DNA from: Pseudomonadota bacterium
Lineage (GTDB): Bacteria > Campylobacterota > Campylobacteria > Campylobacterales > Sulfurimonadaceae
Assembly: GCA_043797085.1 (NCBI GenBank)
Contig: JAZDQA010000006.1
Coordinates: forward strand, 128,001-192,000
DNA: 64,000 nt
Direction: 5' to 3'
Below the pieces are notes generated by a model. The model had not been told where the DNA came from, made no database searches, and saw only the letters and a list, made by a program, of their open reading frames with translations. Shown piece after piece: positions 7,274 through 34,668 of this stretch. Position 1 is the first letter of the stretch. Each line of letters starts with the position of its first letter. The position numbers and the translations under genes were made by a program.

Positions 7274-7274
7274 A

Positions 7275-7457: not shown

Positions 7458-7690
7458 AATAGTGTTTCATTTAGGAACATTAATGTGACTTCGTGGTATA
7501 TCATTGTTTTCAGCGCCCTATAGGGAATTATATCTTAAACAAAGTTTATATACCATTGATAGTTTTAAAAAATATCGCATTGAAAAGGAAAATATTATGG
7601 ATGAAAAACCTCTAAGTTTACTGTTTTGATTAATACTAGCTCGAAAGAATAAAAAAGTATCATAATACATATTAGCATGGGAGATAAAAA

Positions 7691-15667: not shown

Positions 15668-16727
15668 ATATGCCCTCTTTGTCAAATGCTAGGTAACATT
15701 CGTCAATTAAGTCTAAAATGATTTTATATATTAAATCATCGCTAATTGAGGGATAGTAATTATCTTTTCTTTTATCTTCAATAATTTTCTTTGCTCTATT
15801 TGAATATTTTTCTAAAAATTCTTTTATTTCAGATAGTGATAATTCGACTTTGTTGCTATATGTTTCGTAAAACTCCATAAGTTCATCTTGGCAAGCTTCA
15901 AATATAATATATTTGATAGATGTAATTTCTCTTTCATTATAGACTGAAAGACTGACTCGACCTAAATTAAGTTCTCTGGAATATTTTTCTATTCTATAAT
16001 CGGGTATATTCTGGCAGACTGCTTTTAATTTATCTTTTAAATTCCTCAATCCGTCTGAAGGACTGATATTCATCCATGCTTCCGACGAATGAAAATCAAT
16101 TTTGTTATTTGAAGTGTCACTATCTAATGTTTTCACATTTATATTTATAGACTTTAATAAGTCCTGAAAATACTTTATAGATAGTCCATTTAATTCTTTA
16201 GCTGTTCCGGCTTCTGTTAGCTGAGAATTTATTATCCCCACAATATTTTCATCTACAATCAGTGGTGCTCCCGATAATCCTTCATAGCTACTTAATTTTT
16301 GTTCAATATGTAAATCTAGATCTATTTTACCTTTTTTTAAATTTTCAAATTGGTCGTTAATATAATTGTCCATATCAATAAGATTATCGCCAGTGTCTTG
16401 CTTACCTATAGGATATCCTCTTGAGATCCATTTCGTGTTTGCTGTAAGATCGTGATTTACGATATCAATTTTTTCATAAGGTATTGATTCTGGTAATTTT
16501 AAAAGTGCAATATCTAATTCTTTATACTTGTCATCAATAAGCTCATGCAATTCAGCATCATGTATCTTATTATTTAAACAGGTCACTTTTATTTCATTAC
16601 AATTATCTACAATATGATATACGGTAAGAATTAGGTTGTCGCTAATTAAGAAGCCTGTACCATGTTTATCATTGCCTGTTACTTTGCATACATTATTTTT
16701 TAATTTTGTTAAAAAAGTTCTGCTCAT
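15660..16727 (-). CDS. Trypsin-like serine protease with helical C-terminal domain (LmuA-type effector)
   Basis: GTGFLI, LTVYHIV (His), DIALL (Asp) and GLSGAPL (Ser). Confidence 0.88.
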   Translation of the reverse strand: MSRTFLTKLKNNVCKVTGNDKHGTGFLISDNLILTVYHIVDNCNEIKVTCLNNKIHDAELHELIDDKYKELDIALLKLPESIPYEKIDIVNHDLTANTKWISRGYPIGKQDTGDNLIDMDNYINDQFENLKKGKIDLDLHIEQKLSSYEGLSGAPLIVDENIVGIINSQLTEAGTAKELNGLSIKYFQDLLKSININVKTLDSDTSNNKIDFHSSEAWMNISPSDGLRNLKDKLKAVCQNIPDYRIEKYSRELNLGRVSLSVYNEREITSIKYIIFEACQDELMEFYETYSNKVELSLSEIKEFLEKYSNRAKKIIEDKRKDNYYPSISDDLIYKIILDLIDECYLAFDKEGIYE

Positions 16728-17917
16728 TATATTTCAATCTCATTTAGATGCTTGATATCATAGTTGTATTTACTTTTGTATTCTTCATTATTTAATTCTT
16801 GCGAGATATCCAAATCATAATTGAATATTATTTCCTTCTTAGCATCTGTATTGCTAACAATAATTTTTGCCAAAGCTTCTATATTTGGATGTTTATGTTT
16901 AGTACCATTTGTTGAAATTAAAAATTTATCTGACCTTATTAAAGCCATTAAACGATTTGATATATTCTTATTACTTCCATGGTGGGGTATTTTAACCAAG
17001 TTAAAAAGCAATTCGTAGCCAACATCTTGCAGCTTTAATAAATTATCATATATTATATCTTCATGGGCATCGCCTAGAAATAACAGTTTTTTATCTTTAT
17101 ATTCAATTATAAATGATATTGATGAGCCGTTTGTAGCTGATTTGTCTTTTTCGCTTAAAGTAGACAATTCTTCAAAATCATATATGTTAGAAGCTGCAAT
17201 ATCTGATGTCAAAGAAGAATTGTCTTGTTCATACTTCATGTGAAATTCAAAAGCATCATCAAAAATTTCCTCATCACTTATTTCAAAATTATACTTTTCC
17301 TTTTGTAACTCATATAGCCATTCTGTAGATAGCTTTGTTAACTTTTCTTTATTTGGAGACAAAAGGATAAATTTAATATCACCTACGGTTACTTCCGTTT
17401 TAGTCGTACCATCTTTAGTGCATATGACAGTATGATTAAATGAAGAATTCCAATTATAGTTATATTTGTGAATTAGAGAAGCGAGAGACGAACCATGTTC
17501 ACATGTTATATCTTGAATACCATTAATATTATTTGACATATTTTTCATTATAAAAGATTCCAAAATGCTTTTAGTCTCTTGCTTAATATTTTTCACTTTT
17601 TCTTTGTCAAATTGAATATGTTTATAGCTATTATGCCAAATTTCTTTTATCTGTATGATCTCACCATTTTGGTTGTCTTGAATAAATTTTATGGCGCCAC
17701 CAATGTGATCTTCATCTATGTGACTTATAATTAACAGATCAATAGATTCATTTTTATTTTTTAGTTTTAATAGGTCATCTTTAATTTCAATTTGATAAGT
17801 TTCTGGCATTCCCATATCTATTAAAATATTTTGCCCATTCTCAAAATTTAGTAAAAATGCGTCTCCATTTTTTGCTTTAAAAGCTTTTATGTTAACTTTA
17901 ATAATAAATATTTCCAC
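16727..17917 (-). CDS. Metallo-beta-lactamase-fold hydrolase (ComEC-like)
   Basis: GDAFLL, LIDMG, SHIDEDHIGG (HxDxDH), NGSSI, LGDAH, KIPHHGS and HKHP. Confidence 0.9.
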   Translation of the reverse strand: MEIFIIKVNIKAFKAKNGDAFLLNFENGQNILIDMGMPETYQIEIKDDLLKLKNKNESIDLLIISHIDEDHIGGAIKFIQDNQNGEIIQIKEIWHNSYKHIQFDKEKVKNIKQETKSILESFIMKNMSNNINGIQDITCEHGSSLASLIHKYNYNWNSSFNHTVICTKDGTTKTEVTVGDIKFILLSPNKEKLTKLSTEWLYELQKEKYNFEISDEEIFDDAFEFHMKYEQDNSSLTSDIAASNIYDFEELSTLSEKDKSATNGSSISFIIEYKDKKLLFLGDAHEDIIYDNLLKLQDVGYELLFNLVKIPHHGSNKNISNRLMALIRSDKFLISTNGTKHKHPNIEALAKIIVSNTDAKKEIIFNYDLDISQELNNEEYKSKYNYDIKHLNEIEI

Positions 17918-18576: not shown

Positions 18577-21522
18577 TTACCTCACACTCAACGCTCTCGC
18601 AAAACTATCAAGCATTCCAGTTTTAAATGCTTCATCCCCTGCAAACAGTTTATACAACTCTAACTCTTTTTTTCTTTCTCTATTCATGATCTCAGCAACA
18701 ATTTTTTCCAATGCCAACCGTCTCGTATGTTCATCAAGATTTTCTGCATATTTGGCTTTATAATCTTGGTGTGTTTTTACCTTATCCATTAACGAAATGA
18801 ATTTTATCCGCTGTTCCTCCGGCGTTGCATCCCATCCTTGGAACCATCGTTCGTTAAACGTTTTGATAATCTCATCAAGAGGATTTTTTTCTTCTTCATC
18901 ACCGTGCGTGCCTCTAGGATTAGGGTTTTGAGGGTCAAACTGTGTTTCGCTCTCATCCAGACCTATTTTGGCACTCAGCTTCACTCTCTCTAGTCCATAG
19001 GTCGAGAGATCAACCGAATTTAAAAGTTCATCCAGTGCATCTTTGTCTTTATCTTTGATAATCATCTTGGGTATTAAAAATTTCAAGAACCAAAACAACT
19101 TCTCCCATGCCACTACCTCGTAAGGCATAATCGAACTCATCTGTGCGTAGATTTTGACGTATTGTTTTGCTTTGATTTTGTAATCGGCTTTTTGATCATC
19201 ATCGAGTTCCACTTCAATGTTAAATCGTGCAGCAGCCGTGTCAATGATAGGGGATAGCTCGCTTGCCTCTACTCCTCTAAAATATTTTTCAAAAAATGCA
19301 TCTACTTCACTTTGCTCATATACTCCGAACTCGTCAAGACTCTCTTTTAAATCATTGAGTACATTAATATCAGTAGCTTGGCTCAGTGTGGTAGAGGTGT
19401 AAAACGGATCAAATGAAGTTTTAATATCTTCAGTTTTGTTATAAAAATCCAATACAAAAAGGTCTTCCGTCTTTTTACCATATTTCGGAGCGGAACGGTT
19501 TAATCTGGAAAGTGCTTGCACCGCTAATACGCCTTGCAATTTTTTGTCCACATACATAGCACATAGTTTTGGCTGATCAAACCCCGTCAAAAACTTATTG
19601 GCTACGATGAGCAATTTGTACTCATCGCTATCAAATTTATCACTTATATCTTTAGAAGCAAACCCATTGATAATATCTTCAGTGTACTCGATACCGCCTA
19701 CCTCTTTTTGCCCTGAAAAAGCAATGATTACTTTAAATGGATTACCCAGCTCTCGCAATTTATTTACTACTGCTTTATGATAGACAATCGCTCTTTCGAT
19801 ATCCACAGTGACAATCATCCCCTTGGCGTTACCTTTGAGCTTTTTAGTCTTGAATATTTTTTCTACAAAATGATCGAGCATAATTTCCACTTTAGTCGCT
19901 ATGGTCGATGGATCTTTCTCGACAAAACCTCGAAGCCTTTTTTGCGCTTTTTTGGTATCAAACAACGGATTGTCTTCGATAGATTTTTCTATCTCGTAGT
20001 AGCTTTTGTACGTTGTGTAGTTTGAGAGTACATCGAGGATAAAGCCCTCTTCTATCGCTTGTTTCATAGAGTACAGATGAAACGGTTTATAGCTTCCGTC
20101 TTCTTGCTTGGTTCCAAACTTTTCAAGTGTTGTATTTTTTGGAGTGGCTGTAAATGCCAGATAGGAAGCGTTACCTTTCATTTTGCGGCTTTTCATGATT
20201 TCAAGAACTATATCTTGTGCATCCATCTCATCTTCGTACTCTTTTTTACCCATTGCTTCATTCATTTTTCCATGTGCTGTTCCGCTTTGGGAAGAGTGGG
20301 CTTCGTCAATAATGACAGCAAATCGTTTATCGCTAAGGTCACTTATTCCATCCACGATAAAAGGGAACTTTTGAATGGTCGTTAGAATGATCTTTTTTCC
20401 TTTTTCAAGATTACTTTTGAGATCACTAGAGCTATACGCAGGAGCAACGATATTTTTTTGTTCGCTAAACGCTTTGACGTTATCTCTCAGCTGTTTATCC
20501 AGTATCTTTCTATCGGTAACGATGATAACACTGTTGAATAGAGGATAATCCAATCCCTTGCTTCCGCTAACATCCTCACTTGCAGGATACGCTTCAATCA
20601 GCCCGTACGCACTCCATGCAATGGAGTTTGACTTTCCACTTCCTGCACTGTGTTGGATAAGATAGGTTTGCCCTGTTCCATTGTCACTCACATGCTTTAA
20701 AAGCTTTCGTACCACATCAAGCTGATGATAGCGTGGGAAATAAAGTGTATCACCATCGAGTCTTACGAAGTGTTGGACGATATTGGCTAAAGAGTGCTTG
20801 GTAAATATTTCTTCCCAGATATAAGCTGTTTTATGTCCGTTTTCATTAACAGGATTACCTGCCCCATGGTTGCTATTCCCTTTGTTAAACGGTAAAAAGA
20901 ACGTTTTAGTTCCCTCTAACTTGGTTGTCATATATGCTTCATCGGTATCAACCGCAAAATGAACCAGACATCGGGAAAAATTGAGGAGTGTTTCTTTTGG
21001 ATCGCGATCTTCTTTGTATTGCTTGATCCCATGGAATCTGGCATTTTGACCTGTCCATGCGTTTTTGAGTTCCATAGTGACGATAGGCAAGCCGTTGATA
21101 AACAATACCATGTCCATCTCAAGCATGGGATTTGTACGCGAATGAGTCACTTGTCTTGTTACGCTGAAGATATTAGAGTCAAACCGTTTTTTGAGTTCAT
21201 CACCGCTGGAAGCGAGAGGGGCTATAAAAAGAAACGTAAAATGGGCATCATCTACAGCAAGCCCTTTTTTTAGTATCTTGAGTACCCCGTATTTTTTGAT
21301 CATCTTATCAAGGCGTTGGATGGTTTTGAGTTTGTATTGCGGATCACGGCTGATCTTGTTTAGCTCATCAGCTTGGGTATCTTCCAAAAACTCCCAAAAC
21401 AGCTTCTCATCGATTGCGTATTCTTTGTTGAAATCTCTGTTTTCACCTTTGACGAAACCTTGCGCTAAAAGAGACTTTTCAATACTCGTTTCAAGTGCCA
21501 ATTCATTGGTTTGACTGCTCAT
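18577..21522 (-). CDS. hsdR: Type I restriction endonuclease subunit R
   Basis: DMVLFINGLPIVTMELK, QHSAGSGKS, DEAHSSQ, FTATP, LTGFDQP and QALSRLNR. Confidence 0.95.
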   Translation of the reverse strand: MSSQTNELALETSIEKSLLAQGFVKGENRDFNKEYAIDEKLFWEFLEDTQADELNKISRDPQYKLKTIQRLDKMIKKYGVLKILKKGLAVDDAHFTFLFIAPLASSGDELKKRFDSNIFSVTRQVTHSRTNPMLEMDMVLFINGLPIVTMELKNAWTGQNARFHGIKQYKEDRDPKETLLNFSRCLVHFAVDTDEAYMTTKLEGTKTFFLPFNKGNSNHGAGNPVNENGHKTAYIWEEIFTKHSLANIVQHFVRLDGDTLYFPRYHQLDVVRKLLKHVSDNGTGQTYLIQHSAGSGKSNSIAWSAYGLIEAYPASEDVSGSKGLDYPLFNSVIIVTDRKILDKQLRDNVKAFSEQKNIVAPAYSSSDLKSNLEKGKKIILTTIQKFPFIVDGISDLSDKRFAVIIDEAHSSQSGTAHGKMNEAMGKKEYEDEMDAQDIVLEIMKSRKMKGNASYLAFTATPKNTTLEKFGTKQEDGSYKPFHLYSMKQAIEEGFILDVLSNYTTYKSYYEIEKSIEDNPLFDTKKAQKRLRGFVEKDPSTIATKVEIMLDHFVEKIFKTKKLKGNAKGMIVTVDIERAIVYHKAVVNKLRELGNPFKVIIAFSGQKEVGGIEYTEDIINGFASKDISDKFDSDEYKLLIVANKFLTGFDQPKLCAMYVDKKLQGVLAVQALSRLNRSAPKYGKKTEDLFVLDFYNKTEDIKTSFDPFYTSTTLSQATDINVLNDLKESLDEFGVYEQSEVDAFFEKYFRGVEASELSPIIDTAAARFNIEVELDDDQKADYKIKAKQYVKIYAQMSSIMPYEVVAWEKLFWFLKFLIPKMIIKDKDKDALDELLNSVDLSTYGLERVKLSAKIGLDESETQFDPQNPNPRGTHGDEEEKNPLDEIIKTFNERWFQGWDATPEEQRIKFISLMDKVKTHQDYKAKYAENLDEHTRRLALEKIVAEIMNRERKKELELYKLFAGDEAFKTGMLDSFARALSVR

Positions 21523-22499
21523 TTTAACCTCTTTATATCTTCTTCAAGCTCTTTGATACTTTGTATTTTTTCTTGCTCTTTTTGAGTCTCTTTGTATTTT
21601 TGATACTCTAACTCACTTTTTGCTTTTGCCATATCATGAGAGATTTTTCCTGCATGGGTCAAGAGTTCTCGACCATTGAGAGAAATAACTGCATCAAGCC
21701 TCGCTATCCAGTCTTTCATGTACATTGGAGTGCGCTGCATCGCCATCGTCTCTGCAAATGCCAAATACTGCTCTACCAAAAGACCGAGAAGTTTTATCTC
21801 ATCTTCACCCAGATAGTTTTTAGCGATGCTGACATCTTTTTTAGTGACGTTTTTATTCTCTTTATCAAACGAACTCATCCCCAAAAGGGGCTTAGAAATA
21901 TCGACCCTGTTGTGTATCAGTTCAGCTGCCGTTTGCGTTGATACCGCCCATAAAAGCTTATTTTGGACGATTTTAAAAAACTCTACCGTTTTTTCATCTT
22001 TTGGGTTGTAGTCGATACTTGTCATATAGATGTCTTTGATCTTTTGATAAAAAAACTTCTCACTAAGACGAATATCACGAAGTCTGTTTTGCAATTCGTC
22101 AAAATAGCTCATAGAGGTGCCGCTTTTAAATCGATCGTCGTTGAGAACAAAGCCCTTCGTGATGTACTCTTTTAATCTTTCTTTTGCCCAAATGCGAAAT
22201 TTCGTCCCCGTAGATGAGCGCACCCTAAAGCCGATGGCGATAAACATATCGAGATTGTAGTGAGCCACATCGTAGTTTTTGCCATCACTTGCAGTTGTTC
22301 GGTAATTCCGAACAACTGCTATCTCGTCCAATTCTTCTTCTTCAAATATCGCTGTGATATGCTCGCTTATTGTCGATTTTGCTTTGCCGAATACGTCACA
22401 TATTTGTGCCTGCGTTAGCCAAAGCGAACCCTCTTCAAATCTCACATCAACTTTGATATTGCCATTATCGTTTTGGTAAATCAGTATCTCACTCATCAT
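21519..22499 (-). CDS. rhuM: RhuM-family protein
   Basis: WLTQAQI...TISEHI...YNLD..IAIGFRVRS..GTKFRIWA...QNKLLWAV. Confidence 0.85.
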   Translation of the reverse strand: MMSEILIYQNDNGNIKVDVRFEEGSLWLTQAQICDVFGKAKSTISEHITAIFEEEELDEIAVVRNYRTTASDGKNYDVAHYNLDMFIAIGFRVRSSTGTKFRIWAKERLKEYITKGFVLNDDRFKSGTSMSYFDELQNRLRDIRLSEKFFYQKIKDIYMTSIDYNPKDEKTVEFFKIVQNKLLWAVSTQTAAELIHNRVDISKPLLGMSSFDKENKNVTKKDVSIAKNYLGEDEIKLLGLLVEQYLAFAETMAMQRTPMYMKDWIARLDAVISLNGRELLTHAGKISHDMAKAKSELEYQKYKETQKEQEKIQSIKELEEDIKRLK

Positions 22500-23770
22500 G
22501 CCACCCTCACTTTCCCCGTTACTACACTGTCGATGAGTGTCGCTTTGTACTCTTTGAGCTTGGTTATATAGTTTTGTTGCAGTTCGATAGCGGCATCAAT
22601 TTTAGATGTATGCTCTTCGATGTAAGTGATGATTTTGAATTGCTCATCAATAGACGGAAAGCCTATTTTCATACTCATAAACATGTGCGAATAAAATCTT
22701 AATCGTGATGAATGTAATCCAGTTGAAACTCGATTGTAGTGCTCTATATATTTAACACTTTTTAAAAGATGCTCAATATAAGTCGAACTCAATATTATCT
22801 TATGCTGTCGATAAACAGCATAAGAAGAACTCACAATACCTTCTTGAGGAGAAATACCAAGCGCTCCCATCCATGCCCACATAATATTCATAACCAAATC
22901 ATCTTTTTGACATGTTTTAGAACCCGTATAATCTTCAGACATGAACATTGAAACGTTCTTTTCCGATCTTGGCGTTACACCAGTCATATGGGATACCGAA
23001 AGCAACTCTTCATTACCTGTACCTGAACGCTCATTTATCTCTTTAAAGATATATTTTCCTCGTTTAACCGTCCAATGCTCTGGTATCTCCCCGATCCACT
23101 CCACACCGCTATCTTTCATCGATGTATTTGGATTTAATCCTCTCGTCACTGCTTCGTTAATGACAATCTGACGACGCTCTTTGAGAAGTTCAATAAGTTG
23201 CTCTTTTTGGCGGATAGCTTGGTCGATTTGATCTGATTTTTTATTTAGAAAATTCACAATTGAATATTGTTCATCTACAGGTGGAAAAACTATTGCCAAT
23301 CGTTTAAAATCGATAAAACTCAAATTTTGTCTCAGCCCAGTTCCAAACTTATAGATCACTTTAGTTAGATCAAGAGCATGTAAATAGTAATACAAATATT
23401 CAGCATGACCATTTAATACATTCAAATTCAAATAAGCACTTGTAATAATGCCATGATTTCTGGAAAAGCCTGTCCTGAGACTTGTTTTATCATTTTGTAA
23501 ATCCATACATCGGATGATAATATCACCTGTTTGCACAATCTGATAAGTCTCAAATGACTCAGGCACAAGTCCCACCAACTTTTCGATTGGCTTTACAATA
23601 ATATTCCCATAACTAAGAGACAAGACTCTGTCTTCAATCATGCCAATATTTTTTCGCTTATTTTCTCTGTAAACTTTCATCCCTGGCACTATTTCCCAAT
23701 GTTCAGGAATTTCCCCCAACCACTCTACCCCGCTCTCTTTATACGATGAATATCTTTGTAACGTACTCAT
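22496..23770 (-). CDS. hsdS: Type I R-M specificity subunit
   Basis: Two repeats of K(E/D)SGVEW(L/I)GEIPEHW, P..DEQ segments, and C-terminal LIDSVVTGK. Confidence 0.95.
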   Translation of the reverse strand: MSTLQRYSSYKESGVEWLGEIPEHWEIVPGMKVYRENKRKNIGMIEDRVLSLSYGNIIVKPIEKLVGLVPESFETYQIVQTGDIIIRCMDLQNDKTSLRTGFSRNHGIITSAYLNLNVLNGHAEYLYYYLHALDLTKVIYKFGTGLRQNLSFIDFKRLAIVFPPVDEQYSIVNFLNKKSDQIDQAIRQKEQLIELLKERRQIVINEAVTRGLNPNTSMKDSGVEWIGEIPEHWTVKRGKYIFKEINERSGTGNEELLSVSHMTGVTPRSEKNVSMFMSEDYTGSKTCQKDDLVMNIMWAWMGALGISPQEGIVSSSYAVYRQHKIILSSTYIEHLLKSVKYIEHYNRVSTGLHSSRLRFYSHMFMSMKIGFPSIDEQFKIITYIEEHTSKIDAAIELQQNYITKLKEYKATLIDSVVTGKVRVA

Positions 23771-23771
23771 C

Positions 23772-26120
23772 TCATAGCCCCAAAATCTCTTTGATCAATC
23801 CGTCACTCGCTTCTTCGAGTTCCACGATCTCTTTCGCCACCGCTTCAAGGCTTCGTAGTGGTTTATGGGTATAGAAATATTTGTTAAAGCTGATCTCATA
23901 GCCGATTTTAACGCTGTCGAGATTGATCCACGCCTCACTCACATGCGGTTGTACCTCTCTGAGATAATACTCTAAAATATTCTCTTCCCTAGGAATGCTC
24001 TCACTATCTCGCAGATCGGTATCACTCTCATACTCGACAAATTCATATTTGCTTGCTGTCTTGTAGTAACCAAAATGCTCTAGCTCAACTTCACTACATC
24101 CCAAATGATCCAAAAGCTTATCGAGCTTGTCAGCGTTGATCTTGGATACCTTTTTGATCACTTTTTCAGCACTCTCATCGTACCAACTGATGGCGTTTAA
24201 AATAGCGTTTTTCTCTGGAGCCGTAAGCTTGATCTTCTCTTTTTTAATCACTCCATCCACTAACTCTCTAAAGAGATTAAAATCGTTGTATTCATCGGTG
24301 CCAATTTTTTCTTTGAGCAGATTTGCTGTCTCTAAAAGAGCTTTGTGTTTTGCCCACAGCTCTTTAGATAGCAAAGCTTTTTTCTGTTTGGCGTTTAGGT
24401 TGATTTCTTCTTTATCGAGATAGTGTTCGATCTCTTTTTGGTGCTTCATGATGTCAATATAACAATCCTCTTTAAACGCTTCAAGGCACCATCGCATAGG
24501 CTCCTCAAGAGCTTTATCAAATCGGAGAGTTTCTATCAGCTCATCTTTAAATTGTGCTTTGAGTCGTTTAGGGCGTTCGATATTGACTTTGTAATATCCA
24601 AAATCGCTGTTTTGGAAGATTTTAGACGCTATTTTTTTGCCGTCGAGTTCTTCATTGCACACGTTAAAGGCTTTATACACGTCCATAATTTTGGCAATGT
24701 GTTTGGATTCAAACTCACAGTTTTTATCACCAAGATTTTTTCGCAGTTTGCTGTAGAAGTCATTCGCATCGATGAGCTGAACTTGACCTTTTCGGCGTTC
24801 ATCCTTCTTGTTGCTCAGTATCCAAATATAGGTTGTGATCCCCGTATTGTAAAAGAGGTTGTTTGGAAGTTGGATGATACAATCGAGCATATCATTTTCA
24901 ATAATGAAACGGCGGATATTGCTCTCCCCCCCACCTGCATCACCCGTAAAGAGAGAACTGCCATTGTGTACCGAAGCGATACGACTCCCTATGAGATTTG
25001 AGGAAGCGGGCTTCATCTTGCCAACCATCTCCATTAAAAAAAGAAGCTGTCCATCACTGCTTCGTGGCGTTGCATCAGCATCAGCTTCCACTCCCCAATA
25101 ATCTTTTAGTTTGACAATAAAGCGTGTATCGATAACGTCGTTACCGTCTTTGATATACTTTTGTTCACTTGCCCATGATTTGCCGTAAGGAGGATTTGAG
25201 AGCATAAAATCGAACTTGATCCCTGCGAAATCATCGACACTCAACGTTGAGCCGTTTTTGATATTTTCAGGGTTGTTGCCTTTGATCATCATATCCGATT
25301 TACAGATAGCATAGGTTTCATCATTGATCTCTTTACCATAGAGGATGACATCTGCACTCGATTTGATATTCCCATCGGGATCTAAAATAAAGTTTTGCGA
25401 TTCGGTAAGCATCCCTCCACTACCGCACGCTGGGTCATAGATGGTCATAACAGGAGGTAAAACATCTTTAATCGGATCAAATACGATGTGTGTCATTAGA
25501 TCGATCACTTCTCGCGGGGTAAAGTGCTCTCCCGCTTCTTCATTGTTATCTTCGTTGAACTTTCGTATCAGTTCCTCAAAGACATATCCCATACCAAGGT
25601 TGGTAAGAGGTGGGAGTTTTTTACCCTCGGGGTCAAGGGCTTCTTTATCGGTGAGGTTGATGTACGGAGAGGTAAACTTTTCGAGAACCGATAAAAGGAC
25701 ATCTTTATCCGCCATATGTTTCATTTGGGCTTTGAGTTTGAATTTCTCTACGATCTCTTGTACGTTTGCGCTAAAACCGTTTAGATACTCTGTGAAATTT
25801 GCTTCTAGCATCTGGCTTGAGTTTGTTGCGGTGTCATAGAGCTTTTGAAGCGTCCAACGACTCGTATTGTAAAACACATAACCGCTTGCATCTTGAAGTC
25901 CCATATTATCAAGCTCTGTAAATTTAGCTTCTTCTGTTTGAAATCTAAGCTCTTCAAGAACCGCTTCTTTTGTAGGCTCTAAAAGTGCATCTAAACGTCG
26001 TAAAACGACCATCGGCAATATCACATCTCTGTATTTACCACGGACATAGACATCTCGTAAACAATCGTCTGCAATTGTCCATATAAAACTTACTAATTTG
26101 TTGTGTACTGCTTGATTCAT
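23772..26120 (-). CDS. hsdM: Type I R-M N6-adenine methyltransferase
   Basis: GEHFTPREV, YDPACGSGGML, NPPY and FYNTGI. Confidence 0.95.
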   Translation of the reverse strand: MNQAVHNKLVSFIWTIADDCLRDVYVRGKYRDVILPMVVLRRLDALLEPTKEAVLEELRFQTEEAKFTELDNMGLQDASGYVFYNTSRWTLQKLYDTATNSSQMLEANFTEYLNGFSANVQEIVEKFKLKAQMKHMADKDVLLSVLEKFTSPYINLTDKEALDPEGKKLPPLTNLGMGYVFEELIRKFNEDNNEEAGEHFTPREVIDLMTHIVFDPIKDVLPPVMTIYDPACGSGGMLTESQNFILDPDGNIKSSADVILYGKEINDETYAICKSDMMIKGNNPENIKNGSTLSVDDFAGIKFDFMLSNPPYGKSWASEQKYIKDGNDVIDTRFIVKLKDYWGVEADADATPRSSDGQLLFLMEMVGKMKPASSNLIGSRIASVHNGSSLFTGDAGGGESNIRRFIIENDMLDCIIQLPNNLFYNTGITTYIWILSNKKDERRKGQVQLIDANDFYSKLRKNLGDKNCEFESKHIAKIMDVYKAFNVCNEELDGKKIASKIFQNSDFGYYKVNIERPKRLKAQFKDELIETLRFDKALEEPMRWCLEAFKEDCYIDIMKHQKEIEHYLDKEEINLNAKQKKALLSKELWAKHKALLETANLLKEKIGTDEYNDFNLFRELVDGVIKKEKIKLTAPEKNAILNAISWYDESAEKVIKKVSKINADKLDKLLDHLGCSEVELEHFGYYKTASKYEFVEYESDTDLRDSESIPREENILEYYLREVQPHVSEAWINLDSVKIGYEISFNKYFYTHKPLRSLEAVAKEIVELEEASDGLIKEILGL

Positions 26121-26528: not shown

Positions 26529-26831
26529 TCACCCTCTTTTAATCTTGGATAATAGCGTAGGCTTAAACGATAAATCTCGCTCAATTGGAAGCCCTAGAGA
26601 ACCACGGAGTAATTCTAATTCATCAAGCGAGAAATATCCCAATTCACTCTCCATGCCTTGAACGAAGCCAAAGCACGTTTTTGAATCTTCTTTTGAAAAC
26701 TCTATGACATACCACGTCCAATTGCTATCTGGTGTGAACAGTTTGATATAACATATTGGATCGGATATTTCTTCCGTTGCGTATAAATCGGGAATTGCCT
26801 CTAGCAACTCTTGCGGTATCAGTATGCTCAT
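26529..26831 (-). CDS. DUF2958-family protein
   Basis: KLFTPDSNWTWYVIE...FGFVQGMESELGYFSLDEL...IERDLSF. Confidence 0.8.
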   Translation of the reverse strand: MSILIPQELLEAIPDLYATEEISDPICYIKLFTPDSNWTWYVIEFSKEDSKTCFGFVQGMESELGYFSLDELELLRGSLGLPIERDLSFKPTLLSKIKRG

Positions 26832-26832
26832 C

Positions 26833-27528
26833 TTATGCTGCCTGTTGATCTATTATAGGTTTGTACCAACACTTGGACACTCCATCCCATCGAAAACCAA
26901 ACGCCTTAATGCTATCCTTCTTGGCAAAGATGTCTTCACCAACAACAATAAGATGATTACCTTGGTTCACCACGGATAAACCGATTTTGTAAAGAGAAGC
27001 GTAATCTTGCGGTATATTGTTTTGCGCTTGCTCTTTTGGTTGTTGATTCTGATGTTGTTTTGCTGGTTCTAGCTGTTGTGCAGGTTGTTGATTGTGATGG
27101 ACACGGCTCTTATCATAGAGCGAATTTCCGAATTGGTTTCCAAACGAACGAAAACATCGTTTAATCGCATCAGTTACGGCTTCTTTTGACCCTCCTTCGT
27201 GCGAATCGGCTAAGCTTTTTGCAATGCCAGTACCAAAGCCAACATCTTCACGGCTGATATGTTTTGAGTGTGCTAGGTCGTGGACGACAACATTTACTAT
27301 GGCTTTATAGCAGATAACGATATTCGAATTTTGATTCGTCTCTTGGGAGACGTGTTCTAGCTTTGATATGCTGTAGCTCCAATTACCGTAACCGAAGATT
27401 TTATTTGCAGTTTCAATAATGTCATGCCCCTCGACATACGAGAGGTTGATATTATTTTTAGAACGGGTTTTAATTCTGCTACTATCGAGTTCATAGGATA
27501 GTGCCTGATTTTGCTTGTCGTTAAACAT
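26833..27528 (-). CDS. Rad52/Rad22-family single-strand annealing protein
   Basis: LSYVEGHDIIETANKIFGYGNWS, REDVGFG and KEAVTDAIKRCFRSFGNQFGNSLYDK. Confidence 0.88.
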   Translation of the reverse strand: MFNDKQNQALSYELDSSRIKTRSKNNINLSYVEGHDIIETANKIFGYGNWSYSISKLEHVSQETNQNSNIVICYKAIVNVVVHDLAHSKHISREDVGFGTGIAKSLADSHEGGSKEAVTDAIKRCFRSFGNQFGNSLYDKSRVHHNQQPAQQLEPAKQHQNQQPKEQAQNNIPQDYASLYKIGLSVVNQGNHLIVVGEDIFAKKDSIKAFGFRWDGVSKCWYKPIIDQQAA

Positions 27529-27541
27529 AATGTGTATCTCC

Positions 27542-28126
27542 TTATGCGACTTGTGCATCGACTAAACTGAGCAGTTCAGTAGCTTGATTGTTGGCGCTGC
27601 TTCGTTTTGCATTGACTTTGATACGAGATGGTATATGCTCTTCGGTAGAAATAATTTCAACATATTGGTCAACCTCTTCCATTCCCTCTATGGTACACAT
27701 CGCTTCCATTATCGATTTTTCATCAATGGTGACATTGACGTACCCTAATGAGATGAGCGCATTGGCATCGAGGATGGTGAGAGTGTTTTTGATCTTGGTC
27801 TTAGAGGGGGTGATGGTTATTGAGCTAATCATTGTTCCATCAATACGATCGACCCCATACTCCCCCAATACAGAGGCGACGGCTTCAAGTGCTATGCTCT
27901 TCGCACTCTCTAACGACTTTTTCATGGATTGAATCTCTTTGATCTCCAATGCAAGGTATTCAACCTTTTCATCTATCTCTTGGAATGAGAGTCCGATGTA
28001 GTCCGCTTTCACATGGAATGGCTTCTCCGATTCCAGTATGCCACGAATATGATGCTTGAACCAATCGAGGTTCGTAGGGTTAATGTGTTCCATCTCTTTG
28101 ACGAGTCTGTAACTTTCTGTCTTCAT
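27542..28126 (-). CDS. Hypothetical coiled-coil protein (possibly Gp157-like)
   Basis: ATG 28126 after AAGGA; coiled coil followed by a beta-rich part; next to the annealing protein. Family is a guess. Confidence 0.55.
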   Translation of the reverse strand: MKTESYRLVKEMEHINPTNLDWFKHHIRGILESEKPFHVKADYIGLSFQEIDEKVEYLALEIKEIQSMKKSLESAKSIALEAVASVLGEYGVDRIDGTMISSITITPSKTKIKNTLTILDANALISLGYVNVTIDEKSIMEAMCTIEGMEEVDQYVEIISTEEHIPSRIKVNAKRSSANNQATELLSLVDAQVA

Positions 28127-28158
28127 AATGATGTTCCTTTGTGGTGTAAGTGTAATTG

Positions 28159-28977
28159 CTAGGCTGCAATAGCCATAGTTGACTCGGGTGCTTTGATAGA
28201 GGCGATACGTTCGGCAATGTCCCATAGCCCCCGATTAACATCAACATCTTTGGAAATGGAAGTGATCTCACGAGATGTGAAATTGCGTCCTGTTTGAGTA
28301 TTAACCCCTTTGACGTTTCCACGTAATAGATTTTCCTGAATAATGTTCAAAGTTGTGTAAAGATCTGATCTCTCATCTTCTACTCTATGGGGGATCAGCA
28401 AGTCACGATGATTAACTTGAAGCTGTTCATCGAACCGTAGCGGTATTGCTGCTCTTGCAAATGACTCTTGTTCAATAGGAGTGAGGATAATAGCTTCAAA
28501 GGTATCGATCTTCTTTTGAAGAAGTGGTTTGAATGTACCAATATTAGCGATAGCAGTAGTGACATCGTTCTCACGATCTCCGATGTGTTTGATTTTATAG
28601 CTTTGAAAAACACTGTCAGCTACTACAAGACCGTTTGCACACACAAATCGATATATCCCGATGCTAATAGAAAATGCGGTACTACGATCATGGGAATTGA
28701 AGAGTAACAGCTCTACAGCATTTTCTTTTGGATTAACAAGGTCATCGAAATGACGGAAGCGCACTAGGTGACGCTGAAATCCTTCCTTGTTCTCATCTCG
28801 TACGGAGGCTTCTTGGACAGACACAGGGAACCAACTGTGTTGACGGATCTCATCGATGACTTCAACAGTGCTGACGAAGTGATAGGCATCGGATGCACTG
28901 GAATGGGGAGCACTGGTAAAGAGTGCGGGACATTGCTCTAGGAGCTGGGCTTGGGTTAGTGGGTGTAATGCAGACAT
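28159..28977 (-). CDS. DUF932/DUF945-family protein
   Basis: GFQRHLVRFRH, LLLFNSHDRS, YRFVCANGLV and IQENLLRG. Confidence 0.88.
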   Translation of the reverse strand: MSALHPLTQAQLLEQCPALFTSAPHSSASDAYHFVSTVEVIDEIRQHSWFPVSVQEASVRDENKEGFQRHLVRFRHFDDLVNPKENAVELLLFNSHDRSTAFSISIGIYRFVCANGLVVADSVFQSYKIKHIGDRENDVTTAIANIGTFKPLLQKKIDTFEAIILTPIEQESFARAAIPLRFDEQLQVNHRDLLIPHRVEDERSDLYTTLNIIQENLLRGNVKGVNTQTGRNFTSREITSISKDVDVNRGLWDIAERIASIKAPESTMAIAA

Positions 28978-29258
28978 GGGTTATCCTTTTGTATAGTTGA
29001 AATATCAAAAGTCTGATTTTTTTATCGGACTTTGATCATTTAGACTTTTAACTACGATAGTAGCGACTGCGATCATAATGGCTAAACAGTGCGAAATGGG
29101 AAACATTTTCGATCCTTTTTATGGATTAGTAGGTTGGATACAGTTTAATAATATGGGAGTGTAAAAAGATGGGAGTAAAATTTTTGAGGATAGAAAGCAG
29201 AAGTAAGAAGTGGTAAAGTGGATTGAAATTCTCGACAATGCGCGTAAAAGTTTTGGTT

Positions 29259-29282
29259 TGAGACCCTTTTTTCAGGGTCTCA
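29259..29282. other. Perfect 9-bp inverted repeat downstream of the helicase
   Basis: TGAGACCCT-N6-AGGGTCTCA; no clear U-tract. Confidence 0.45.
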
Positions 29283-29292
29283 TGGAGGGGCT

Positions 29293-30663
29293 TTAGTAGG
29301 TAAGTCGGTAGAATTTTTCACCATTGCTCTTAAATAGGTTAGGCTCTCCAAATACATACGGATTAGTAAGCTCCAAATGCTTAATCAGCACCTTAGCTGT
29401 CTTAATAGTTTTATCCAATGGATGAAGAATGTGATATACAATAATTAGAAACTTTTGCCTAACTACATTGTTTTGAAGATCGCTCGTAAAATTATTAAAA
29501 AGTGCTATATCAATATTTTGTAAATGCTGAAAATAGAGAAAATTTCTCGATATTATTGCATTAACAAAATTACCAAGAGTGTTGGCAGTCATATTCATCA
29601 TAGCCACTTTTTCCGGTGTAGAAAGAGCCATATTTGCTTGTTCAAAATCAACATTAAAAGACTTCAAAAATATAGCAAAATCCTCCAGTTCACTATAAAT
29701 CGTATCTTCGAGTTTCTGATAACCCCCATAACCAAGATGATTAGTTTGATTGAGGTTGCAACCCGTTGTAAAAACGGTAAATCTTCTGTCGCTCGGCTCT
29801 ATTTCAATCGGATGTTCATCGTTGGAAAACAATATGGTCTGCGCATGTAGTTTTGTAGGACGAACAAGATCCACATTCTTCTTCTCAGCCGTAATGGAAT
29901 CATTGGTAATCAATGCTTTCAGAAAACTGTTAAAACTGCTTTTGCCTATCGTTGAATACGATATTTCATCAAAATTTATAAACAGCGTATTTTCGATGAT
30001 AGCACCTAAATAATTGGATTTTAAGCTATCCCCATTGATCTCCTTGCAATATTCCTCTCCAAAAAGCAACCGAATAATCTTGAAGAAAGTACCTTTACCT
30101 CCACCTTGAACGCCTTTAAACAAGATAGATACTTGTGATTTATTCAAAGTTTGAAAAAATGCAGCAAGCCAGTTCAAAAAATACCAAGCTCTTTGGCTAT
30201 CATAATTTACTAGATGTTCAACGAGCTTCAACGTTGCGGTCGGGTAATTATAATGCCCTGCCGACAGCATTAAATACTTGGAGGGCTTAAAAAGATTTAT
30301 ATGCCAAGAACCGTCTTTTTCGTAAAATTCTTGGAGTTCATTTGCATTAAACTCTTCACATACTACAAGCAGCAGCTCTGAGATATGGATCGTATTATCT
30401 CTATCTTTTATCTCGTCAATACTTTTTTTTGTTTCAATTTTAATTGGCATTTCCAATAAAATTGTCAAAATATTTTCTGCTTTTGTCACCGTTAACTCTT
30501 GATAAGGAGCAGATGCTGAAGTGCGAATACAAATATTACCCTTGACATTCACCCATATTGCGCCACCTTTTTCTCCAAATTTATTGAGGACCTTATTTTC
30601 CTCCGTTTTTTTAGAGTTGTTGTCTTTAAAATTCGTGAAATCTTTTTGTATTGGTGCGTTCAT
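29293..30663 (-). CDS. SF3/D5-like helicase (DUF5906 type)
   Basis: Walker A GVQGGGKGT, Walker B FINFDEI, LFSN and DRRF. Confidence 0.85.
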   Translation of the reverse strand: MNAPIQKDFTNFKDNNSKKTEENKVLNKFGEKGGAIWVNVKGNICIRTSASAPYQELTVTKAENILTILLEMPIKIETKKSIDEIKDRDNTIHISELLLVVCEEFNANELQEFYEKDGSWHINLFKPSKYLMLSAGHYNYPTATLKLVEHLVNYDSQRAWYFLNWLAAFFQTLNKSQVSILFKGVQGGGKGTFFKIIRLLFGEEYCKEINGDSLKSNYLGAIIENTLFINFDEISYSTIGKSSFNSFLKALITNDSITAEKKNVDLVRPTKLHAQTILFSNDEHPIEIEPSDRRFTVFTTGCNLNQTNHLGYGGYQKLEDTIYSELEDFAIFLKSFNVDFEQANMALSTPEKVAMMNMTANTLGNFVNAIISRNFLYFQHLQNIDIALFNNFTSDLQNNVVRQKFLIIVYHILHPLDKTIKTAKVLIKHLELTNPYVFGEPNLFKSNGEKFYRLTY

Positions 30664-31133
30664 AACAATTTCCCCTTGTTGTTTTCATTTTGAAGTTTTT
30701 TTGCCTCTTGCACTGCTTTCGCATTGCAGAGTTCGTTATACTTATCTCCGCTGTGTCCTTTTACCCATTCAGCTTTAACTTGATGTGGTTGCGATACGGT
30801 TAAATACGCTTCCCATAAAGCCTTGTTCGCCACTGTTTTTTTATCACTAGTTTTCCAATTATTCTTTCTCCATCCTTTTATCCAGACGTTTATCCCATCT
30901 ACAGTGATTTTACTATCACTATGAATAGTAATTTCACACTTGCTCGGTATTGCTTTTATGGATTCTATAATTGCCATTAATTCCATCTTATTGTTCGTTG
31001 TATTGATTTCACCTCCAACAACTACTTGTTCGTTTTTATTAAGATATTTGACAATGCCGCAATATCCACCAAAATTATTTTCATTACCGTTGCCGAGACA
31101 ACTTCCATCTGTATAAATTTCAACTTTTTCCAT
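30660..31133 (-). CDS. rnhA: Ribonuclease HI (island-borne)
   Basis: YTDGSCLGN, TTNNKMEL, HSDS, WVKGHSG..YNE. The last conserved Asp appears to be Asn (LCN). Confidence 0.9.
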   Translation of the reverse strand: MEKVEIYTDGSCLGNGNENNFGGYCGIVKYLNKNEQVVVGGEINTTNNKMELMAIIESIKAIPSKCEITIHSDSKITVDGINVWIKGWRKNNWKTSDKKTVANKALWEAYLTVSQPHQVKAEWVKGHSGDKYNELCNAKAVQEAKKLQNENNKGKLL

Positions 31134-31439: not shown

Positions 31440-32594
31440 CTAATAAGATGAAATGTTTTTAGGTTTTGCTCCTGTGATAAGTTCTAAATATTTTTTGTTT
31501 TTTATATATTCCGTTGCTATTAGAAGATATTTGGAATATGTATCTGGATGAAAAGATTTTTTCCTATTATTGTCAGGGTCGTGATATTTATCCAAACTAC
31601 TTAAGATGGCTGATTTTTTCATTCCAGCATTTACGGCATCATAGATAAAAAACATGTCAGCAAATTTTTGTTGCAGTTTAGCCCCCGTTCTACTTTCAAA
31701 AGTTTTTATAGTCCCCTTTGTATTTTTTGCACTTAAATGTATGATGTCATCAGCTTTTTCTAATTCTTCTCCCCTTAATTCTCTCGACAGTTTTAGAATT
31801 CGGTTACCTAAAGTCTCTTTTTTTATATGTGATATATAAGCTTTGATTTCTTCTATGGGACGTGAAAGATCTAATGCAATCAAGATTTCTTCAGCATTCA
31901 CTTTTCTCTCAAAATTTGGAACAATATGATTAATTGCATAAGTGTTACCGTTTTGATTTATTTCTTGCAAGATACAAAAACTTTTTTGAATACTTTCATT
32001 TGTTCTACCGTCAAATGTTGTCCCAATGTTGTCAAATTTCTTGTTATTCACTTCATGGAGATAGTCTTCGTCCGCACCTTGATAATTCATTACATACCCA
32101 TCTGGATATACTCGGTAATTGCTTACTAAATCATTCTGAAGCTCAGTAACAATTATTCTTAAATAGTCGTCACAAAGCTGTGTTTCATCATCTTTAATAT
32201 TTAAATCACCATAGATATACTTATTAAGTTGAGCATCGTTCATTTTCTTTCCGTCAATGCTGTTTTCAAACTTATCATACCAATCGGGACAATACTTGTT
32301 TGTTTTTTCTTTATCTATCTCTTTTTCAAGTATTTCCTTTAACTCGTTTAAGTTTTTTAGAGCTAGTTCTTTGTATTTGTTGGATAGTTCAACAGATATC
32401 GATAAAAATTTACCCATGAATATAGTTAAGTATGGATGTCTCTCTTGCAGCTCTTTAATGTAATCCAATTTTTCCAAAATATTTATGACTTCTTGATTGC
32501 GTATAGCCATTTCATATGCTATACAGGGTGTCAATTCATAATCTTCAAAACTTTCTATCTCTTGATAGTCTTCTCTTTTTAGTAGTTCCACCAT
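31440..32594 (-). CDS. Hypothetical protein
   Basis: 384-aa ORF upstream of the excisionase-like gene; no motif recognised. Confidence 0.7.
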   Translation of the reverse strand: MVELLKREDYQEIESFEDYELTPCIAYEMAIRNQEVINILEKLDYIKELQERHPYLTIFMGKFLSISVELSNKYKELALKNLNELKEILEKEIDKEKTNKYCPDWYDKFENSIDGKKMNDAQLNKYIYGDLNIKDDETQLCDDYLRIIVTELQNDLVSNYRVYPDGYVMNYQGADEDYLHEVNNKKFDNIGTTFDGRTNESIQKSFCILQEINQNGNTYAINHIVPNFERKVNAEEILIALDLSRPIEEIKAYISHIKKETLGNRILKLSRELRGEELEKADDIIHLSAKNTKGTIKTFESRTGAKLQQKFADMFFIYDAVNAGMKKSAILSSLDKYHDPDNNRKKSFHPDTYSKYLLIATEYIKNKKYLELITGAKPKNISSY

Positions 32595-32626
32595 TTTATA
32601 TCCCTACAGTTTACATAAATTGATTA

Positions 32627-33466
32627 TTAATGGTTACGGTCTATCAAACCTGCCTCAGTGACCGCTATTGCAAATTCTGCCTGTATTGCACCGTCAAGTG
32701 ATACGATCAGTTGTTTATGCTCAGCAACAAGTCTTTCTCTGTATTCTGGATCAGCATCTTTAAATACACTGTCAAAACATTCTGCATACCTATCAAATTC
32801 ATTAAGTATTTTATCCATTTGTCGGTGATAATCGATCCCGCCAATGGACTTGATCTCAATATGATTGGCTTCAATCTTTTCAAGATTCCAGATCGTCCCT
32901 TTTTTTGTTTTAACGACTCTTGCTTCAGATTTTGATTTGGTAGCTAAAATATCCATCACATTATGACTATAGCCTACACGAGGTTGCCATGATCCCAGCA
33001 ACTGTTTGTCATGACACATAAGCATATAAACGTAAAATGCAAAATTTCTACCATCCTTTTGGATAGTAGAAATATGAAAGTGTAATCCTGTATCTTGATT
33101 CGTGTAGCCAAACTCTTCGATGAGTGGCAAAATGTGGTTGATATAGTGCTTTACGCCTGTTTGAGATGTGATCGGGATAGATATTTCTATCCCATGACTT
33201 TCTAACGACTGGTCAGGCTTGATTTGAACACAATGGTTTTTATCTTCATCCGTCGGTAAGCTGATCAAATCCACTAAAATATCGGCATTACTAAATGTTT
33301 GTATTTTATTTCTGATTCTCTCTACAGCATCCGCAAAATCGTATGTTTCGATGTCGATATAAAATTCAAATTCACACCCATATTGATATTCATCTTCGTC
33401 TGTTATATTGTGACTATCTACCGCACGATTAGGAATAGCTTTGTATCTTAGTGTTGTATTCGACAT
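32627..33466 (-). CDS. Putative amidoligase (COOH-NH2 ligase, glutamine-synthetase-like fold)
   Basis: YGCEFEF, IKPDQSL, GIEISIP, DTGLHFHIS and HIEIK follow the GxExE / DxSl / E / GxHxH / ExR pattern. Confidence 0.8.
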   Translation of the reverse strand: MSNTTLRYKAIPNRAVDSHNITDEDEYQYGCEFEFYIDIETYDFADAVERIRNKIQTFSNADILVDLISLPTDEDKNHCVQIKPDQSLESHGIEISIPITSQTGVKHYINHILPLIEEFGYTNQDTGLHFHISTIQKDGRNFAFYVYMLMCHDKQLLGSWQPRVGYSHNVMDILATKSKSEARVVKTKKGTIWNLEKIEANHIEIKSIGGIDYHRQMDKILNEFDRYAECFDSVFKDADPEYRERLVAEHKQLIVSLDGAIQAEFAIAVTEAGLIDRNH

Positions 33467-33469
33467 GCG

Positions 33470-34072
33470 TTAGTGCAACTTTTCTAAAAAGTTTTTCAAT
33501 TGTCCAACTTTATACTCTGTATTGTTTTCCCAAACTTTTAATGGCTTTTGATCATCGGGGATATACGTATCTTCTCTGATGTAAACGTAGGCAAAATTGA
33601 CACCATCGTGGGTTTTTACTTTGATTCTTTTTCGTTTATAGTAATCAGGCGCACCTTCAAATTCATCGATTTGGTCTAAAAGTTCTTTACGCTGAATTTC
33701 GTAAAGTTCTCCAGATATTTTGTTGATCGGCTTATTTACCAGATAAGGGTAGTTGCCAAAACTATCTTCAAACATTCCAAATTTACCAACGGTAAAAGCT
33801 TTGCCTATTCTTCTCGTCGATTTTGCTAAAAGTTTGTTGTTGTCAAACCCTTTTTTTAGCGATCCATAAACAAATAAAAGTTCATGGAATGGCTCTATAC
33901 GCTTAAAATACCCTCTTTGTACAATAGAGATGATTCCGCGTTCATGCAGTCTATGCAAATATTTTCTGATGGTATCTTTGGAAATACCTTCAATATCCAC
34001 TTGAGAAAAAGGAACTACTACATCTATGAGCAAAGCATTTATTTTACGCTCAAGCTTGTCGATTGTTTGCAT
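33470..34072 (-). CDS. Winged-HTH + gamma-glutamylcyclotransferase (AIG2/GGCT) fusion
   Basis: N-terminal SKDTIRKYLHRLHERGIISIVQRGYF; C-terminal LFVYGSLKKG, GELYEI, DEFEG..YYKR and AYVY. Confidence 0.85.
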   Translation of the reverse strand: MQTIDKLERKINALLIDVVVPFSQVDIEGISKDTIRKYLHRLHERGIISIVQRGYFKRIEPFHELLFVYGSLKKGFDNNKLLAKSTRRIGKAFTVGKFGMFEDSFGNYPYLVNKPINKISGELYEIQRKELLDQIDEFEGAPDYYKRKRIKVKTHDGVNFAYVYIREDTYIPDDQKPLKVWENNTEYKVGQLKNFLEKLH

Positions 34073-34091
34073 TGTATTCCTCCTTGTTTAT

Positions 34092-34131
34092 CGTGACACA
34101 ATTGTAGCATTAATTTTATAAAAGTGTCACG
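34092..34131 (-). promoter_or_regulatory. Inverted-repeat operator flanking an extended -10
   Basis: CGTGACAC-N24-GTGTCACG enclosing minus-strand TGcTACAAT (34101-34109); AAGGAGG RBS follows. Confidence 0.65.
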
Positions 34132-34206
34132 TTTTATTTTATATTAAATCCCTATTAATAGAGATATTACAGCTATTGTTTTACCAATTAAATAGATTTT
34201 TAAAAA

Positions 34207-34299
34207 TCATCTTACTCTACTAAAGAAGTCTTCTAATGATTCAGCGGCTACTTCTTGACGCATTTGAGAATAGCGCGTGGTAATACTTGTCGATGTATG
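34207..34299 (-). pseudogene. C-terminal relic of a second tyrosine integrase
   Basis: Minus strand reads HTSTSITTRYSQMRQEVAAESLEDFFSRVR*, with the H-x8-Y catalytic spacing. Confidence 0.65.
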
Positions 34300-34584: not shown

Positions 34585-34668
34585 TGGTACCAGTGGGCGG
34601 ACTCGAACCGCCACATATTGCTATACCGGATTTTGAATCCGGCGTGTCTACCATTTCACCACACTGGC
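34585..34668 (-). tRNA. tRNA-Leu(CAA)
   Basis: Cloverleaf GCCAGTG...CCGGA-TT-CAA-AA-TCCGG...GGCGG-TTCGAGT-CCGCC-CACTGGT-ACCA with long variable arm. Confidence 0.96.

Follow-up and report, generated by a model that had tools for sequence, protein, structure and literature searches.

A mobile two-gene module of sulfur-oxidizing Campylobacterota pairing an amidoligase-like protein with a winged-helix GGACT protein: a candidate toxin–antitoxin system

Bicistronic AbiE operons, in which a repressor with an N-terminal winged helix and a separate C-terminal domain precedes a DUF1814/AbiEii nucleotidyltransferase toxin, are carried by mobile elements and plasmids, and the winged helix-turn-helix (HTH) antitoxin binds the abiE operator, whose 11-bp palindromic arms are spaced by 27 nt, according to the available text of Dy et al. 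2014 (PMC3985639). In DarTG, as outlined in the accessible part of PMC9967889, the toxin places a covalent mark, ADP-ribose, on its target and the antitoxin is an enzyme that removes it. Amidoligases resembling glutamine synthetase (GS) also stand beside gamma-glutamyl cyclotransferases (GGCT) in mobile DNA, namely in cassettes of the phages phiEco32, LUZ24, and RIO-1 and in prophages of Firmicutes, and the available portions of these reports propose that they alter the cell wall (PMC5498523, PMC10580990, PMC11318856) or aid nitrogen metabolism (PMC10945688). Here, we scrutinized a two-gene unit with features of each of these systems, located in a window (the whole stretch of DNA analyzed) of 64,000 nt from a Sulfurimonadaceae genome (assembly GCA_043797085.1, contig JAZDQA010000006.1, positions 128,001 to 192,000). 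Gene 1 encodes a winged helix fused to a GGACT domain and gene 2, which follows after a gap of 3 nt, encodes a predicted GS-like ligase (Table 1). On balance, the pair is probably a DarTG-like type IV, that is target-level, toxin–antitoxin (TA) system that uses gamma-glutamylation.

With AbiE, the module shares a bicistronic layout with the predicted repressor gene first, a winged helix N-terminal to a separate domain, a spaced palindrome over the promoter (CGTGAC-N27/28-GTCACG here, 11 bp-N27-11 bp in abiE), and carriage by mobile elements and plasmids. Unlike AbiE, its C-terminal domain is GGACT, its predicted toxin is a GS-fold amide ligase, and its operator has a different sequence and is about 10 bp shorter. 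Gene 2 had no AbiEii match in Pfam or PADLOC, and the pair is not an AbiE system. Its predicted logic, in which one enzyme marks a target and the other unmarks it, is that of DarTG, whereas the mark would be a gamma-glutamyl group, the folds are unrelated, and the eraser is fused to an HTH. By analogy, the module most likely works like AbiE in its regulation and like DarTG in its logic, and is a member of neither. Compared with the phage cassettes, as far as the available text describes them, it consists of two genes only, places a winged HTH-fused cyclotransferase first and behind its own conserved operator, occurs in integrative islands, islets, and plasmids but almost never in viral contigs, and has a ligase too divergent for a direct match to PF12224. 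The earlier note on this DNA had proposed a new TA class; that label fits the predicted toxin chemistry and the architecture but not the enzyme pair, which phage cassettes already contain and which also has a non-mobile form. No TA system of this chemistry was found in the published literature, in a search that excluded supplements and had subscription journals largely outside its coverage, nor were the ligase family and architecture of this module found in print. Klebsiella CfmP is an ATP-grasp enzyme and not relevant to the module.

Toxicity of the ligase is suggested by the pattern of gene loss across genomes, which was counted on loci collapsed at 97% GGACT identity. Searches that started from the ligase recovered 72 loci, 51 of them distinct, and GGACT was intact in 34/34 of those with an intact ligase, the remainder being cut by contig ends (8) or carrying a broken ligase (9). 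Searches that started from GGACT recovered 113 loci, 92 distinct and 78 informative (13 were cut by contig ends and 1 had lost both genes), with the ligase broken or absent in 27/78 (Fisher p 1.7e-5 for 34/34 versus 27/78). Three additional ligase loci, retrieved with another query, all retained an intact GGACT partner. A two-way survey of the 353 genomes of the family found 37 places, among which 22 had both genes intact, 8 had GGACT only, and 0 had the ligase only (2 had both broken and 5 lay at contig ends); tested by gene length, this asymmetry gave a p of 0.013. Ligase lesions were diverse, comprising insertion sequences, stops, frameshifts, and deletions with different ends, and on a quick tree the losses were scattered (28 changes for 30 losses, against a shuffled mean of 25.9). 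GGACT was itself broken or gone at three loci (L155, L181, and L036), each of which had also lost the ligase, so that the frequency of a broken or missing GGACT was 0/66 beside an intact ligase and 3/33 where the ligase was gone (p 0.035). GGACT is dispensable once the ligase has been lost. Orphan antitoxins derived from decayed pairs have been described for type II and type IV systems, in the available text of PMC7192599 and PMC7354431.

The pair is a conserved, mobile two-gene module of sulfur-oxidizing Campylobacterota. Among 43 ligase loci in the Genome Taxonomy Database (GTDB), a GGACT gene lay directly upstream in 40; of the other three, L032 stands at a contig edge, L036 has a 5' deletion, and only a short remnant is left in L043. 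Flanks varied and no neighboring family followed the pair, the next largest cluster covering 8 loci and consisting largely of GGDEF signaling proteins; integrases, tRNA genes (9/43 loci), AbiEii, Fic, YoeB, RES, and plain housekeeping genes were all found alongside. The two-gene synteny survey that the earlier note had proposed supports its idea, and the outcome that the note had named as refuting, homologs lying mostly in larger biosynthetic clusters, was not observed. The absence of an adjacent amidotransferase or ATP-grasp gene, remarked on for the window, held more widely, with neither enzyme detected at E<=1e-6 among 178 flanking open reading frames (ORFs) of the GTDB loci (179 were picked and one antisense ORF was left out). 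Gene 1 is patchily distributed, occurring in 32/353 genomes of the family and 4/401 of the phylum, and the host genome encodes no second GGACT gene. Both proteins have their closest named relatives in Sulfuricurvum. Pattern-limited scans placed the pair on 2/72,556 plasmids and on 1 IMG/VR contig. One of the plasmids, a complete replicon of Aliarcobacter butzleri (L187, NZ_CP104379.1), carries the pair with its operator at 8189-9677, together with two integrases, hicAB, and tetracycline-resistance genes. On a plasmid of Aliarcobacter cibarius (L208, 4986-5393), an HTH-less GGACT gene follows a gene resembling a type IV coupling protein, with no ligase nearby. A relative of the window island appears to lack the cassette, as one 1925-nt contig from one run (X12) joins position 32568 to 34221 and leaves too little room for the pair.

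Upstream of gene 1, the repeat CGTGACAC-N24-GTGTCACG brackets a -35-like GTGACA and the extended -10 element TGCTACAAT, its left arm overlapping the -35-like hexamer and its right arm standing directly after the extended -10. The promoter scan gave 7 promoter-like sites against 10.6 expected, so it alone proves nothing; TGnTAnAAT was kept in 12 aligned loci. The two-gene unit, its 3-nt gap, its ribosome-binding site, and the bracketing repeat were all present in the sequence as the earlier note had described them. Allowing <=2 mismatches to CGTGAC-N27/28-GTCACG (N29 once), the predicted operator was found upstream of 85/100 HTH-bearing loci and 0/5 HTH-less loci, with a chance rate of 41/3000 random genome windows; 5 further HTH-bearing loci at contig edges were dropped, and L007 was taken out of the HTH-less group because of an assembly gap. 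Of the 15 exceptions, 11 have a divergent HTH and in part retain a half site, and the other 4 belong to the main clade and have all lost the ligase. The left arm could be conserved as a -35 element; the right arm, lying past the -10, needs another reason. From the covariation of HTH and operator and the precedent of AbiE, the operon is likely to repress itself through binding of the winged helix to the promoter palindrome.

Gene 1 matched the Pfam GGACT family (PF06094) at E 8.6e-22 (78.4 bits, gathering cut-off 22.8), and the best solved-structure relatives of this domain were mouse and human GGACT. Residue E139, within the motif DEFEG, aligned with Glu82 of human GGACT (3JUB), the proposed catalytic residue; the roles of Glu82 and YGSL are taken from the available text of bioRxiv 10.1101/2025.01.15.633182, according to which GGACT and BtrG release 5-oxoproline from gamma-glutamyl-lysine or glutamylated butirosin. 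Gene 1 shares the YGSL motif and catalytic Glu with both enzymes and is predicted to release 5-oxoproline from gamma-glutamylamines; it differs from them in its HTH fusion and in its proposed role opposite a toxin. YGSL was retained in 111/111 intact GGACT domains and the catalytic Glu in 110/111. Residues 1-60 were modeled as a winged helix (predicted local distance difference test, pLDDT, 69-85 for the block) with generic structural matches only; the model was poor over GGACT (pLDDT <50 for residues 61-185), so the winged helix alone was interpreted. The fusion of a winged HTH to a GGCT domain with its DEFEG Glu, read earlier from the sequence, is thus borne out by the Pfam match, the alignment of E139 with Glu82, and the model. 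A conserved C-terminal helix extends past the enzyme domain. In a divergent clade (L156, L157, and L179), the HTH-GGACT protein is longer, at about 250 aa, with an extra C-terminal segment, and the main operator is lacking. In L007 and L194/L241, GGACT seemed to be fused to a menaquinone-pathway domain, which was rejected as the effect of a stretch of N in the assembly.

Gene 2 had no match in family scans of Pfam, PHROGs, PADLOC, and NCBIfam or in sequence searches of the PDB, and gave no hit to Amidoligase_2 (PF12224) itself. Hence, its membership was judged from relatives and fold. A profile search retrieved 249 representatives, and of the 47 relatives scanned, a choice among 150 listed, 35 passed the PF12224 cut-off, two of these being 38% identical to gene 2; the Atlas linked gene 2 to Amidoligase_2 with a score of 0.95. 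Pfam describes AIG2-type neighbors in Firmicutes. The gene 2 structure model (pLDDT 88) superposed best on human GS (Z 10.6, root-mean-square deviation 3.9, 172 aligned residues), the top 16 structural rows were all GS, glutamate-cysteine ligase, Dop, or PafA, and Foldseek returned an E of 4.4e-5. Judged by the model, gene 2 has the catalytic fold of glutamine synthetase and glutamate-cysteine ligase, and by its sequence relatives we file it as a divergent relative of Amidoligase_2, not as a member. The amidoligase motifs noted earlier, with EIK replacing ExR, were found (GCEFEF, HFHIS, and EIK), and we take them to be the GS metal and glutamate sites by motif order, without residue-level superposition. 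Residues listed for the ligase are E32, E34, D85, E94, H129, H131, R163, E204, and K206, of which E32, E34, E94, H129, and E204 were invariant in 38 diverse rows of the ligase alignment. Among 66 intact ligases, ExE was present in 65/66 and HxH in 66/66. With median dN/dS (nonsynonymous to synonymous substitution rates) of 0.09 for gene 1 and 0.13 for gene 2 over 25 near pairs, both genes are maintained as proteins under purifying selection, with their catalytic residues retained. Before EIK, beside the active site, lies a conserved basic segment with a net charge of +3 to +7 in 59/61 parsed ligases, a possible contact for tRNA or another polyanion that may, however, partly serve ATP binding. 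Of two distant ligases, P0283 had no match in viral contigs and P0272 led to a single phage record without annotation. At the one distant locus whose context was seen (L176, genome G610, minus strand 684-2505), a longer ligase is preceded by an HTH-less GGACT gene and a small gene with, by eye, an HTH-like appearance. A hairpin inside the window ligase gene (33044-33073) was discarded as being at chance level (2 found, 1.1 expected).

In the mechanism that we propose, the ligase would use ATP to activate free glutamate as gamma-glutamyl phosphate and transfer the glutamyl group to an amine needed by the cell, and the cyclotransferase would cut it off again, releasing the amine and 5-oxoproline; both activities are those expected of the two enzyme families. 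The winged helix of gene 1, bound to the promoter palindrome, would keep operon expression low, and the ligase would be freed if the element were lost or the gene 1 protein decayed. The amine could belong to a protein lysine (+129.04 Da), to a small molecule (lysine, diaminopimelate, or a polyamine), or to an aminoacyl-tRNA (its alpha-amine). Cyclotransferase chemistry requires the alpha-amino group of the glutamyl to be free, which argues against Pup-like protein–protein ligation and against alpha-glutamylation. Such a module would likely stabilize islands and plasmids, and possibly act in abortive phage defense. A farther-reaching version, which we put forward tentatively and regard as doubtful, is that this is the first TA family with an ATP-dependent gamma-glutamyl ligase toxin, that the toxin reversibly glutamylates a macromolecule (a protein lysine or an aminoacyl-tRNA amine, compare the basic segment), and that orphan erasers protect their hosts against incoming elements or phages with related ligases. 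The writer-and-eraser interpretation of the earlier note is partly supported, namely by the stand-alone unit, by an operator that tracks the HTH, and by the one-way loss of the ligase, whereas the pairing itself was already known.

Several observations weigh against a TA reading or against parts of it. Of the two genes, the ligase is the longer and lies farther from the promoter; most loci came from metagenome-assembled genomes or metagenome contigs, the GGACT-first metagenome scan used the best 80 of 277 matches, and the loss count covered this operon alone, without a control operon. Orphan GGACT genes had dN/dS of 0.02-0.20, not relaxed relative to their nearest intact relatives, a result compatible with recent loss or with an independent function. 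Three loci (L029, L034, and L176) combine an intact ligase with an HTH-less GGACT and lack the operator, and no replacement palindrome was found at the 11 loci of the divergent-HTH clade. The last position of ExR was K in 52 of the 66 intact ligases and R in 11 (3 unparsed). The resemblance of the N-terminus to AbiEi, noted earlier, held as far as the winged-helix fold and was otherwise weak for this protein: the window HTH had no AbiEi match in Pfam or PADLOC, and AbiEi structures were absent from the top 50 generic fold matches of the winged helix. The likeness comes from the divergent homolog L156, with three PADLOC AbiEi matches over the HTH (best E 2.4e-5; AbiEi_4 below cut-off), and from Atlas clusters of DUF6088/AbiEi_4 at 0.82, a language-model lead only; as the gene upstream of an AbiEii gene in L004 also fell below cut-off, a weak AbiEi score is compatible with kinship.

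The same loss pattern is also expected if GGACT has a use by itself and the ligase is no more than a burden. This is the core of an unlikely alternative, in which the pair is non-toxic and metabolic, masking and unmasking a small amine by gamma-glutamylation in the manner of PuuA/PuuD or BtrG, with a mildly costly ligase. Many copies of the pair lie among housekeeping genes, and E139 was retained in 30/30 orphan GGACT genes. Moreover, a chromosomal Amidoligase_2 subfamily (L209-L238), not detected by the profile of the window ligase clade, occurs in 61/401 Campylobacterales genomes, without a GGCT within 1.5 kb in 30/30 loci, and adjoins a PuuD-like peptidase resembling gamma-glutamyl-GABA hydrolase in 3/3 loci tested, albeit below cut-off. 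Like our module, that pair joins a ligase of the same superfamily to a gamma-glutamyl-removing enzyme; it differs in having the ligase first, a remover of another fold, whole-genus spread, and housekeeping contexts. Hence, pairing a writer with an eraser is not itself a toxin signature, while by analogy the chromosomal pair supports gamma-glutamyl chemistry for the family. In one family, the chromosomal gene follows crcB and a gene for a small cysteine-containing protein. A metabolic role sits poorly with the patchy, mobile distribution of the module, with the decay of GGACT after ligase loss, with the lack of any accompanying transporter or catabolic gene, and with an HTH that has no recognizable ligand-sensing domain apart from the enzyme.

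Less probable again is a non-toxic modification of the cell envelope or phage receptor, by a reduced form of the phiEco32/RIO-1 cassette, for which a block to superinfection has been proposed, with GGACT tuning or recycling the mark. The closest predicted viral structures to gene 2 are phage amidoligases, the window island also encodes Lamassu and type I restriction-modification systems, and envelope modification is the role already proposed in print for the phage genes, in the portions of those reports cited above. The other cassette components (amidotransferase, ATP-grasp enzyme, and second ligase) were not found among the 178 neighboring ORFs, however, the single viral contig speaks against a phage gene set, and envelope modification does not account for a ligase that is never left without its remover. 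Neutralization of a toxic ligase by binding to gene 1 (type II-like), or by removal of glutamyl from the ligase itself, would predict the loss asymmetry and operator equally well and give the conserved C-terminal helix a purpose, but is quite improbable given the near-universal YGSL and catalytic Glu, which point to catalysis, and the HTH-less and C-terminally different GGACT versions that are still paired with intact ligases.

The two-gene unit forms one end of a 32-kb defense island at tRNA-Leu(CAA), about 450 nt from the tRNA gene. The 3' 57 nt of this gene are repeated beside a tyrosine integrase, which delimits an island of about 32 kb, with a GC content of 0.35 versus 0.40 in the right flank (Table 1). 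One metatranscriptome contig covers 32922-33709, although contigs cannot show transcription. Immediately after the ligase (32 nt), a 384-aa protein without a family match is encoded at 31440-32594 (minus strand) and is not conserved beside the pair elsewhere. Beyond it on the minus strand lie backbone genes of the island (26529-31133: DUF2958, a Rad52/22-like annealing protein, a Gp157-like protein, DUF932, a DUF5906 P-loop protein, and an extra RNase H), a type I restriction-modification system in which a RhuM-family gene separates hsdS from hsdR (18577-26120), and a Lamassu-type defense operon encoding a metallo-beta-lactamase (MBL) hydrolase, a trypsin-like protease, an LmuC-like protein, and an LmuB SMC-like ATPase (13266-17917). 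On the plus strand, 4115-11828 encodes a HipB-like HTH protein, a WYL-WCX regulator, a small tubulin/FtsZ-like GTPase domain protein, DUF445, and two proteins without assigned function, one of which matches PADLOC PDC-M09A.

Table 1. Coordinates in the window of the two-gene module, its predicted control elements, and the ends of the island
Feature	Position	Strand	Details and basis
Gene 1, predicted antitoxin and repressor	33470-34072	minus	200 aa; winged helix (residues about 1-60) and GGACT (66-170; YGSL, E139)
Gene 2, predicted toxin	32627-33466	minus	279 aa; glutamine-synthetase-like COOH-NH2 ligase related to Amidoligase_2
Ribosome-binding site AAGGAGGA of gene 1	34078-34085	minus	sequence; 5 nt before ATG
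Predicted operator, inverted repeat CGTGACAC-N24-GTGTCACG	34092-34131	no strand	sequence, conservation across loci, alignment
Predicted promoter: GTGACA, 18-nt spacer, TG-C-TACAAT	34101-34130	minus	promoter scan; alignment of 12 loci
tRNA-Leu(CAA), integration site at island end next to module	34585-34668	minus	
Duplicated 3' part of tRNA-Leu, far island end	2502-2558	minus	57 nt, 95% identical
Tyrosine integrase of island	2689-4038	plus	

Phages and mobile elements commonly carry amidoligase-GGCT genes, for which the papers cited here offer functions only as proposals. The module described here is a minimal two-gene version with its own regulator and with a pattern of gene loss hinting that the ligase cannot exist on its own, and its presence on complete Aliarcobacter plasmids means that it occurs in cultured bacteria. 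A simple readout, toxicity and rescue, would offer a route to the substrate of amidoligases. If the farther-reaching version is true, the many phage amidoligase-GGCT pairs would be recast as conflict systems, not envelope or nitrogen-metabolism genes; if the TA reading is confirmed, gamma-glutamylation would join the chemistries of TA systems, and a reversible amine mark would join bacterial biology.

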